DNA of 64,000 bases from a virus. Its lineage: Duplodnaviria; Caudoviricetes. The stretch's first letter is position 1; every line of letters starts with the position of its first letter. The stretch covers positions 1-64,000 of IMG/VR virus record IMGVR_UViG_3300009424_000011; one strand, written 5' to 3'. A program made the translations under genes and the position numbers. Under the pieces are notes generated by a model. The model saw only the letters and a list, made by a program, of their open reading frames with translations, was not told the DNA's origin and ran no database searches. This document shows positions 3,731 through 10,418 of the stretch, in pieces.

Positions 3731-3818
3731 TGGAGGAAGGTGGAGGCATCGAACCCCTGACCCCGAAGGGTCACCCCGGCTTAGCAAGCCAGTTGAGGAG
3801 CCGACCTCGGCACCCTCC
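3731..3818 (-). tRNA. tRNA-Ser(GCT), 8/4 fold
   Basis: 8-bp acceptor GGAGGGTG/CACCTTCC; 4-bp T stem; loop TTGCTAA. Confidence 0.85.
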
Positions 3819-3824
3819 TCTAAT

Positions 3825-4444: not shown

Positions 4445-4529
4445 TGGTGGGTGCGGTGGGACTCGAACCCACAAAGCGGCCGAATTTTAAGTCCGGTGAG
4501 TCTACCAATTCCCCTGTCGCCACGCACCC
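4445..4529 (-). tRNA. tRNA-Leu(TAA), atypical fold
   Basis: Loop CTTAAAA; A73; short variable region; insertion before the D arm. Confidence 0.8.
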
Positions 4530-4634: not shown

Positions 4635-4718
4635 TGGTGTGAGCGGGGAGACTCGAACTCCCAAAGCTACCGGGTCTGAGCCGGCAAGGTATACCATTCC
4701 CTATGAAGCCACGCTCAC
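4635..4718 (-). tRNA. tRNA-Leu(CAG), atypical fold
   Basis: Loop CTCAGAC; same insertion architecture as Leu(TAA). Confidence 0.8.
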
Positions 4719-4762
4719 GTAACTCTTATTAAGCTCCTGTATTCACAGGTATTCTCCTAAAA

Positions 4763-4855
4763 TGGTGGGTGACCGAGGACTCGAACCTCTCGCCATCCGT
4801 CCCCCACGTTCTGAAACGGCACCGGGGTTACAGGCCGGCAGGGGGAAGATCACCC
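4763..4855 (-). tRNA. tRNA-Tyr(GTA), rearranged (no conventional D arm)
   Basis: Loop CTGTAAC; acceptor and T arm with ACCA; TCCCCC near the 5' end pairs with GGGGGA after the variable arm. Confidence 0.7.
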
Positions 4856-4867
4856 GAAACTTGTGAT

Positions 4868-4907
4868 GAAACGAAAATAGCGCCAGAACCCGGTGGGCTC
4901 TGACGCT
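4868..4907 (-). terminator. Attenuator terminator, operon C
   Basis: AGCGTCAGAGCCC-ACC-GGGTTCTGGCGCT followed by ATTTTCGTTTC. Confidence 0.75.
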
Positions 4908-6931: not shown

Positions 6932-7006
6932 TGGTGCTTCGTGAAGGTGCTGCCCCTCCTACCTCTGCCTTGTCACGGCAGCGCTCTACTGGTGAGCTAA
7001 CGAAGC
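6932..7006 (-). tRNA. tRNA-Val(GAC), non-canonical T loop
   Basis: Loop GTGACAA; T loop GGCAGCA. Confidence 0.8.
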
Positions 7007-7007
7007 G

Positions 7008-7081
7008 TAATCCCGGTAGGATTTGAACCTACGTTTCATCTCTTATGAGGAGAGAGCTTTAGACCACTAAGCTACAGGATC
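7008..7081 (-). tRNA. tRNA(CAT), Ile2 or Met
   Basis: Loop CTCATAA; CCA not encoded. Confidence 0.8.
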
Positions 7082-7083
7082 AA

Positions 7084-7473
7084 TTATTTCTTATACCAGC
7101 CATTCAGGCTCGGATTGTGGTGTTCGATATGGCAATTATGACATAACACAACACATTTGGCGAACTCTTTCATTATAGTTTCTTCTTTGTGATTCGAAAG
7201 CTCTCTTAAAGTAAGCTCGAAACCTTTTGAAGTCTCATCTGTATGATGAAAACACAAAGCAGCTAGATTATCTCTGTAACCACATTCTTCACAACCACCT
7301 CCTCGAAGGTTTATCAACTCCATTTTTCTTTTCAAGCCTCGGGCTTGTTGTTTTTCGTAGAGTTGATTCCTCACATTACCGTTTTTGTTCTGACATGCTC
7401 GTGAGCAAAACTTGGTCTGTTTACCAGTCAATTCCGTTTGGCAAGTCAGACATAAGACGTTCATCTCTGTCAT
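7084..7473 (-). CDS. HNH endonuclease inserted in the tRNA array
   Basis: CxxC...FCSRAC, CEECG, FHH and LCHNCHIEHH motifs; AT-rich relative to flanks. Confidence 0.85.
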   Translation of the reverse strand: MTEMNVLCLTCQTELTGKQTKFCSRACQNKNGNVRNQLYEKQQARGLKRKMELINLRGGGCEECGYRDNLAALCFHHTDETSKGFELTLRELSNHKEETIMKEFAKCVVLCHNCHIEHHNPSLNGWYKK

Positions 7474-8212: not shown

Positions 8213-8323
8213 ATGCCGGGGACGAAATCAACAAGGCGCTCTAACCACCTGAGCTACACCGGAGCCTTGCCCCGGTGGCCGGATTCGAACCGGCGTCCTC
8301 CTCGTTCTACAACCGCCCCGCAT
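8213..8323 (-). ncRNA. Circularly permuted tRNA mimic (YrlA/Y-RNA-like)
   Basis: Order is T arm, loop-closed acceptor stem, D arm; the 5' and 3' ends pair in place of the anticodon arm. Confidence 0.7.
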
Positions 8324-9853: not shown

Positions 9854-10200
9854 TGGAAGCAGGTTGAGATTACACCCGCTACGATCCGTCATTCGTCAGA
9901 TTATAGTGACCTTGCGAGTCACCTTCCCGACTTATCCACCAAGCCCCTTGCGGTAGCTCAGTTCCAGACCAACGCCGCCTTTTTCTCCCGGTTCTCACGG
10001 GACCGCTGGCATTTGCGGTGACACTGCATGATATTCGGCAGTTTCGATTCCGCTGACTGTCTCCAGCCATTAAGGGCTTGCGGGCCCAACGAAACTTCTT
10101 CCACCAACCAACCATCACCTTGCGAGATCAGGTCGGGCCACATTGAGGCAAGCCTCTATGGCATTAGGCGTCTTTCACATGCAGTCGTGGCAATCTTTGC
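9854..10200 (-). ncRNA. Large structured RNA, possibly GOLLD-like
   Basis: About 350 nt non-coding directly after a tRNA; five CGCAA(G) motifs consistent with GCAA tetraloops; 3' GGGTGTAATCTCAACC. Confidence 0.45.
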
Positions 10201-10203
10201 GTT

Positions 10204-10279
10204 TGGAGCAGACTGGTGGGTTTGAACCACCGATCTCACGATTAAGAGTCGTTTGCATTACCAACTATGCTAAGTTTGC
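10204..10279 (-). tRNA. Second tRNA(CTT), nominal Lys, with U73
   Basis: Loop CTCTTAA; cloverleaf; TCCA end. Confidence 0.8.
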
Positions 10280-10418
10280 AAGGTTATCCCGGTGAAGCGG
10301 TCCTCGCGGACCTGACTGCGCTTGCCTGAATTGACCGATCGGGACCGGCGGGGTTAAGTGGCCTTACCCCCTTTATGTGAGTTGCCTCACACTATCGCCA
10401 TCAGGCTGGCATTCCGTC

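Follow-up and report, generated by a model that had tools for sequence, protein, structure and literature searches.

A tyrosine tRNA-like gene without a D stem-loop in a bacteriophage tRNA array, and its putative pseudoknotted core

Introduction

Natural armless tRNAs have been described exclusively from mitochondria, and all known bacterial tRNAs are cloverleaves (PMC11551756, 2024). An artificial D-armless tRNA, mini-HisT, is accepted by HisRS, EF-Tu and the ribosome of E. coli, and degradation by PNPase limits its use (PMC11551756). Serine tRNAs (allo-tRNA-type) and histidine tRNAs of the 8/4 kind are known from the tRNA clusters of alphaproteobacterial phages, and their 12-bp branch has the length that EF-Tu recognises (PMC5389517). 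The main text of that study mentions neither an 8/4 tRNA for tyrosine nor the loss of a D arm. In bacterial tRNA-Tyr, A73 and the G1-C72 pair are identity elements (PMC9976931). No D-armless or pseudoknotted phage tRNA came up in full-text searches of the literature.

The window analysed here covers positions 1 to 64,000 of an IMG/VR virus record that is 96.8 kb long and has an estimated CheckV completeness of 57%. Its closest isolates are the Erythrobacter phages vB_EliS-L02 and XM05, each with a genome of ~150 kb; vB_EliS-L02 is described as a CbK-like siphovirus (PMC9127768). A preliminary description of the window identified a tRNA-Tyr with a topologically rearranged D arm within a large tRNA array. 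The account below confirms the observation and supports the interpretation in part.

Results

Layout of the gene

The tyrosine tRNA gene runs from 4855 to 4763 on the minus strand and encodes a 93-nt RNA, in which position n corresponds to window coordinate 4856-n. All parts described here lie on the minus strand. An intrinsic terminator hairpin (4879..4907), kept in all relatives, stands directly upstream, making the tyrosine tRNA the first gene past a conserved terminator. The acceptor stem is formed by RNA 1-8 (8 nt, 4848..4855) and RNA 82-89 (4767..4774), with 8/8 pairs in 7/7 distinct sequences of the two architectures termed type A and type B below. It is followed by the discriminator A73 and an encoded CCA (RNA 90-93, 4763..4766), which are identical in every homolog.

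The place of the D arm holds only nine nucleotides, the connector UUCCCCCUG (RNA 9-17, 4839..4847), and these form no hairpin. Within the connector, homolog pair counts define the 5' strand of a helix, P (RNA 10-15, 4841-4846). By inspection, the anticodon arm occupies RNA 18-34 (4822..4838), its loop CUGUAAC carries U33 and A37, and the anticodon GUA (Tyr) lies at 4829-4831. The anticodon stem of the window copy has four Watson-Crick pairs and a C.C mismatch at 31.39, a position that is a G-C pair in the homolog L020.

Between the anticodon arm and the T stem lies a 32-nt region. It comprises the 5' strand of a variable-arm stem, V (RNA 35-40, 4816..4821), a variable-arm loop (RNA 41-59, 4797..4815) and the 3' strand of V (RNA 60-65, 4791..4796), the last defined by shuffle tests, pair counts and folding energies. 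The loop contains GGGGGA (RNA 51-56, 4800-4805), which is the 3' strand of P, and the segment CGGAUGGCGA follows it at RNA 57-66. In the window sequence, RNA 38-49 can also be read as a hairpin, CGUU-UCAG-AACG. The T arm (RNA 67-81, 4775..4789) has a 4-bp stem and the loop UUCGAGU, as defined by pair counts and a seven-sequence comparison. The 8-bp acceptor stem, the short segment before the anticodon arm, GGGGGA and the 4-bp T stem are thus all located where the preliminary description had placed them. The set of G1-C72, A73, GUA, long variable arm and encoded CCA is complete in this RNA.

An intron-containing or permuted gene was considered as a source of the unusual layout and rejected on inspection. 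Acceptor strands, CCA and anticodon loop follow one another in the usual order without interruption, and no D arm reappears when the variable insert is excised.

Detection by standard tRNA finders

ARAGORN makes no call at 4763-4855. The Rfam tRNA model RF00005, whose gathering threshold is 29 bits, gives no match to the gene at that threshold or at E<=1 in a search of 8.5 kb, and none at E<=10 on a 131-nt slice that holds the gene. The gene departs from the canonical cloverleaf in its RF00005 score, in its D arm and in the combination of a 7-bp acceptor with a 5-bp T stem. It shares with the cloverleaf a 7-nt anticodon loop with U33 and a purine at 37, a 7-nt T loop of the UUCRANY type and a 3' NCCA. 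Because standard tRNA finders overlook such genes, phage tRNA counts and statements about a 'missing isoacceptor' would be wrong for phages of this kind.

The array contains other irregular elements. A tRNA-Val(GAC) at 6935-7006 on the minus strand has an unusual T arm, scores 43 bits with Rfam and receives no ARAGORN call. A tRNA-Leu(CAG)-like gene at window 4636-4720 (minus strand) combines a short variable region with an oversized D region; ARAGORN makes no call for it in the window and does call its ortholog in the relative L009. Sub-threshold Rfam matches occur at 8216-8319, 3734-3819 and 4445-4529 on the minus strand (YrlA-like at 37.5 bits, tRNA-Sec-like at 37.7 bits, and tmRNA/tRNA-like), and the tRNA-Sec-like one is probably a Ser(GCU) gene.

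Homologs and the search for further copies

Copies with the window architecture, termed type B, were sought by pattern scans of IMG/VR, metagenome and GTDB genomes. The scans returned two diverged copies, L012 and L020. L012 comes from a relative of 164 kb, and the HslV-like proteins of that phage and of the window are 62% identical. L020 lies in an unrelated 88-kb phage, where it opens a different tRNA array; a promoter-like site close to the sigma-70 consensus, TTGACA-17-TACAGT, lies ~25 nt upstream of it (region L020:7400-7460). A metagenome copy, L022, differs from the window gene at two positions, both at helix ends. In all, type B comprises four distinct sequences from three lineages, and CUGUAAC, UUCGAGU and ACCA are unchanged across the set.

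A covariance model, R1, was built from the acceptor stem, the anticodon stem, V and the T arm, with helix P left out. The four type-B sequences score 95-107 bits (the window gene 106.8 bits), and the next best match in 563 kb of collected loci reaches 37 bits. Searches elsewhere returned no additional type-B gene: the GTDB genome scan yielded only canonical tRNA-Tyr genes and a tRNA-like fragment in Micromonospora, blastn with two queries against GenBank phages gave no type-B match, and a neighbouring protein, used to look for kin of the L020 phage, recovered only that phage itself.

Two partial elements were seen along the way. In four Micromonospora chromosomes (L069, L072, L073 and L074), a conserved hairpin resembling a Tyr-type anticodon arm is accompanied by a T-arm-like hairpin, within flanks common to the four genomes and without acceptor stem or CCA. 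In two phage contigs (L064:7726-7783 and L066), a T arm and a 6-bp minihelix ending in CCACCA occur without an anticodon arm, an arrangement that is tRNA-minihelix-like.

Helices P and V

In an alignment of the four type-B sequences, the acceptor stem is fully paired (100%), and two of its pairs differ on both sides. The core of helix P (columns 11-15:51-55) is paired in 4/4 and has three pairs changed on both sides. Two of these changes are in L020 (13-53 from C-G to U-A, and 14-52 from C-G to G.U) and one is in L012 (15-51 from C-G to U-A), where P is also longer by two pairs. Helix V (UGCCGU:AUGGCG, RNA 35-40:60-65), a stem of 4-6 bp that closes a 14-20-nt loop, is 87.5% paired; it has changed on both sides at one pair (37-63) and on one side at three. 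When the partners are slid by 1-3 columns, 0-1 double changes remain, and shuffle controls reach the observed pair values in 0-1 of 500 trials. These counts come from four rows and three independent lineages, so the covariation statistics are weak, indicative rather than proof. The pairs of the variable-arm loop were counted on an alignment not fitted to P; since P is absent from R1, its register in L020 is not forced by the alignment. The homolog covariation that had been named as a check supports the proposed pairing of the connector's C-run with the downstream G-run.

Tests on single sequences are less favourable to P. Shuffling gives p values of 0.095, 0.042 and 0.29 for P in the three lineages, so that P alone is not significant, and the CCCCC:GGGGG match of the window does not exceed chance in composition-preserving shuffles (p about 0.1). 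The reality of P thus rests on the homologs. The whole-fold z-score of the window sequence, -0.45, is likewise not significant. Such results could be expected if the RNA had a long variable arm and an unstructured connector, as D-armless mitochondrial tRNAs do, with P a by-product of C-richness in the connector and G-richness in the loop. L020, which offers two registers for P and a competing inner hairpin, can be read in the same way, and the artificial D-armless tRNA is functional in E. coli without a helix of this kind (PMC11551756). Against an unstructured connector, P recurs in the same columns in three lineages although the model did not contain it, its three double-sided changes compare with 0-1 in the slid controls, and it would contribute about -11 kcal/mol, as against about -5 kcal/mol for V. 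An unstructured connector is accordingly considered unlikely.

V is the helix furthest above chance in every single lineage sequence (shuffle p 0.007, 0.034 and 0.027 across the three lineages). This bears on a second way of folding the RNA, in which P encloses an extended anticodon arm and the small variable hairpin, with no V and no pseudoknot. The anticodon arm would then gain two wobble pairs, and the 10 nt before the T stem would be single-stranded and D-loop-like. For the window sequence, such a nested fold is calculated at -34.7 kcal/mol, compared with -27.0 kcal/mol for a fold with V only. Its two added pairs, 16-36 and 17-35, are formed in 4/4 sequences with one-sided changes; this 2-bp extension of the anticodon stem is equally consistent with the data and competes with the outer two pairs of V. 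The small hairpin, by contrast, which the preliminary description had taken as the variable hairpin (38-41:46-49), keeps just 1-2 pairs in L012 and L020, where 3 nt are deleted. Together with the prominence of V in each lineage and the double change at 37-63, this loss makes the nested fold distinctly improbable. Minimum-free-energy folds of the homologs disagree with one another and with the proposed model, and that of L012 even breaks the anticodon hairpin; being mutually discordant, they were not used as models.

The segment previously called D-loop-like is mostly the 3' strand of the conserved V stem, RNA 60-65, and for this reason the D loop is not considered to have moved. Of the rearranged D arm proposed earlier, the helix between connector and G-run therefore stands, and the relocated D loop does not. 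Because P (10-15:51-56) and V (35-40:60-65) cross, the two seem to form a pseudoknot. The P-to-V linker measures 3-4 nt and the V-to-P linker 5-10 nt in the window sequence and L012; in L020 the P-to-V linker is 4-10 nt, according to the register chosen for P.

The acceptor branch

The eighth acceptor pair is C-G, U.G or U-A across the seven type A and type B sequences. Position 49:65, the alternative pair needed by a 7/5 model, is A.G, G.G, A.A or C.A and is formed in 0/7. With an eighth pair that covaries and 49:65 unpaired throughout, the acceptor branch is, as judged from this comparison, 8+4 = 12 bp.

Conservation and synteny of the Tyr slot

The relatives share a gene order of tRNA-Ser(CGA or UGA), terminator hairpin, a gap of 165-185 nt, and Leu tRNAs, which are usually Leu(CAG or UAG) followed by Leu(GAG). 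The corresponding slot in the window reads Ser(CGA)-terminator-Tyr-Leu(CAG)-Leu(GAG). In vB_EliS-L02, the same gap contains a tRNA-Tyr(GUA) that ARAGORN calls, and in all other relatives it contains an element with a GUA anticodon that ARAGORN overlooks.

Two relatives, L007 and L009, carry the tyrosine tRNA without a single difference (93/93); their HslV-like proteins are 94% and 80% identical to that of the window. Adjacent spacers are 87-95% and some neighbouring tRNAs 76-95% identical. Had the gene diverged as fast as the spacers, about 6-7 of its 93 nt should have changed, and none has. A decaying tRNA-Tyr pseudogene that has lost its D arm would explain the silence of the standard tRNA finders and the mismatch in the anticodon stem. 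It would not be expected to show 0 substitutions in 93 nt next to spacers that differ by about 6-8% in these two relatives, nor stems that change by compensation. The same architecture also recurs in the unrelated L020 phage, where it has a promoter-like site of its own, and no canonical Tyr tRNA that would make the gene redundant was found in the 57%-complete record or in the complete genomes with L012 and L020. Decay is thus very improbable. Identity amid diverging spacers, the syntenic Tyr slot and the standing of the gene as the sole one with a Tyr anticodon indicate that it is a selectively maintained phage gene. The earlier argument for function over decay finds support here: this is a conserved and probably functional tRNA-Tyr.

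Three architectures occupy the Tyr slot. Type A is an 8/4 cloverleaf, found in vB_EliS-L02, XM05 and L008 and, in another phage, L062 (L001:4236-4322, L002:411-495, L008:6484-6568 and L062:12679-12763). In L062 the D stem has 4 bp and its loop 8 nt; the other three have a 5-bp D stem and a 5-nt loop. Type B is the window architecture without a D stem-loop. Type C (L010/L011 and L013; L010 about 7052-7128, L013 about 7135-7220) is built on a 7/5 branch; its 8-nt T loop lacks the UUCRA motif and its D loop lacks GG, and ARAGORN does not call it. The type A copy of XM05 begins with C1-G72, the archaeal/eukaryal Tyr identity pair. The anticodon stems of XM05 and L008 have only three Watson-Crick pairs, along with conserved C.U and A.G mismatches.

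L008 equals L009 in the identity of its HslV protein to that of the window (80%), and its Gln tRNAs are nearly identical, yet its Tyr slot is of type A. As a phage no more distant from the window than L009 carries a different architecture, the gene in the Tyr slot is, on this evidence, exchanged among phages.

Tyrosine supply in the phage array

The tRNA array extends from 10279 to 3122 on the minus strand and contains 27 genes called by ARAGORN. The Rfam tRNA model likewise gives 27 matches in the array, partly different from those of ARAGORN, and a GOLLD RNA match lies at 9861-10307. The array, tRNA-Val(GAC) and the tyrosine tRNA gene together cover all 20 amino acids. Neither ARAGORN nor Rfam finds a second Tyr tRNA anywhere in the 96.8-kb record, window included, in line with the description of this gene as the only Tyr tRNA; the record being 57% complete, the missing part of the genome may carry another. 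No other gene with a Tyr anticodon occurs in G001 and G002, the complete genomes that carry L012 and L020. Upstream of the gene, a leader ORF of 27 codons (5133-5050, minus strand) is composed mostly of the amino acids of the tRNAs downstream; it contains one Tyr codon, as had been noted earlier. A TyrRS-type domain was found in none of four phage records searched, so charging would fall to the host enzyme.

A tRNA-like RNA in this position could also serve without decoding, either as a decoy or spare substrate for a host nuclease directed against tRNA-Tyr or as a charged RNA with a non-translational role. Phage tRNA-Tyr counters the retron-Eco7 effector PtuAB, which degrades host tRNA-Tyr (PMC11555353), and some irregular 8/4 tRNAs are charged yet not used in translation (PMC5389517). 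The presence of three Tyr-slot architectures among close relatives, suggesting rapid turnover, would fit as well. A non-decoding role accords poorly with the fact that these are the sole genes with a Tyr anticodon in arrays that otherwise cover other amino acids, and with the retention of a 12-bp EF-Tu branch, a standard T loop and an anticodon loop with U33 and A37. A replacement tRNA that resists a nuclease would, moreover, still decode. An RNA that takes no part in decoding is therefore an unlikely explanation.

Discussion

A model for the tyrosine tRNA

The reading favoured here, at a probability of roughly 0.6, is that the gene encodes a functional tRNA-Tyr that has an 8/4 branch, replaces the D arm by a pseudoknot and is charged by the host TyrRS. 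The RNA would be transcribed first after the terminator and processed as the other tRNAs are. Its pyrimidine-rich connector would pair with the G-rich part of the variable-arm loop to form helix P. P may stack on the anticodon stem through a continuous 5' strand, taking the place of the D stem, and V may pack beside P in antiparallel orientation. This predicted geometry fits the linker lengths in two lineages, and the short linker from P to V may contact the T loop. Host TyrRS would be expected to charge the RNA because the bacterial Tyr identity set of A73, G1-C72, GUA and a long variable arm is kept. The charged tRNA could then decode UAY codons, which would complete the 20-amino-acid tRNA set of the phage.

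A broader proposition, on which the odds appear even, is that this RNA is a translationally active D-armless tRNA of a bacterial system, built around a pseudoknot in which the connector strand pairs with the loop of a long variable arm. It would then be the first armless tRNA from outside mitochondria. The proposition also holds that the Tyr slot has been refilled with three non-standard architectures, perhaps under host factors that target tRNA-Tyr. Phage tRNA-Tyr rescues infection from retron-Eco7 PtuAB (PMC11555353), which makes an arms-race explanation possible. Conflict between phages and defence nucleases over tRNA-Tyr may have a part in the way architectures replace one another in the Tyr slot.

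If the model is correct, evolution in the bacterial cytoplasm has already explored the space of D-armless tRNAs. The RNA would then provide a compact pseudoknot replacement for the D arm and possibly a shape-orthogonal scaffold for genetic-code engineering.

Comparison with known systems

The window gene shares with the 8/4 tRNAs of alphaproteobacterial phages (PMC5389517) an 8+4 branch of 12 bp, a long variable arm and a location in a phage tRNA cluster. Those tRNAs have a Sec-like D arm, with a long stem and a tetraloop. The type A relatives of the window gene also have a long D stem with a very short loop and so approximate this D arm, which is absent from the window type. The window gene further differs from the 8/4 tRNAs in its amino acid, which would be Tyr, in having no D stem-loop and in a connector that pairs with the loop of the variable arm.

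Mitochondrial tRNA-Ser(AGY/GCU) and mini-HisT (PMC9427863, PMC11551756) resemble the window gene in having no D arm and a single-strand connector in its place. In these RNAs, the connector has 4-5 nt, the variable loop is short, the branch is of the 7/5 type and there is no pseudoknot; the natural examples are organellar. The window RNA differs from the D-armless mitochondrial tRNAs in its 9-nt connector, long variable arm and 8/4 branch, and in being encoded by a bacteriophage.

With bacterial class II tRNA-Tyr, the gene has in common the GUA anticodon, U33, A37, A73, G1-C72, a long variable arm and an encoded CCA. Unlike the window gene, canonical tRNA-Tyr combines a 7/5 branch with a D arm that carries G18 and G19.

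A further parallel is found in the tRNA-like structures (TLS) of plant viruses. TLS-Tyr of BMV (PMC9976931) is, like the window RNA, viral, and combines a non-cloverleaf core that is pseudoknotted, as the core of the window RNA is proposed to be, with Tyr identity elements for TyrRS. In plant-virus TLS, the structure is the 3' end of an RNA genome, the pseudoknot builds the acceptor arm and the RNA does not decode. The window RNA, in contrast, is the product of a free-standing gene in a tRNA operon and has a normal acceptor stem and anticodon loop.
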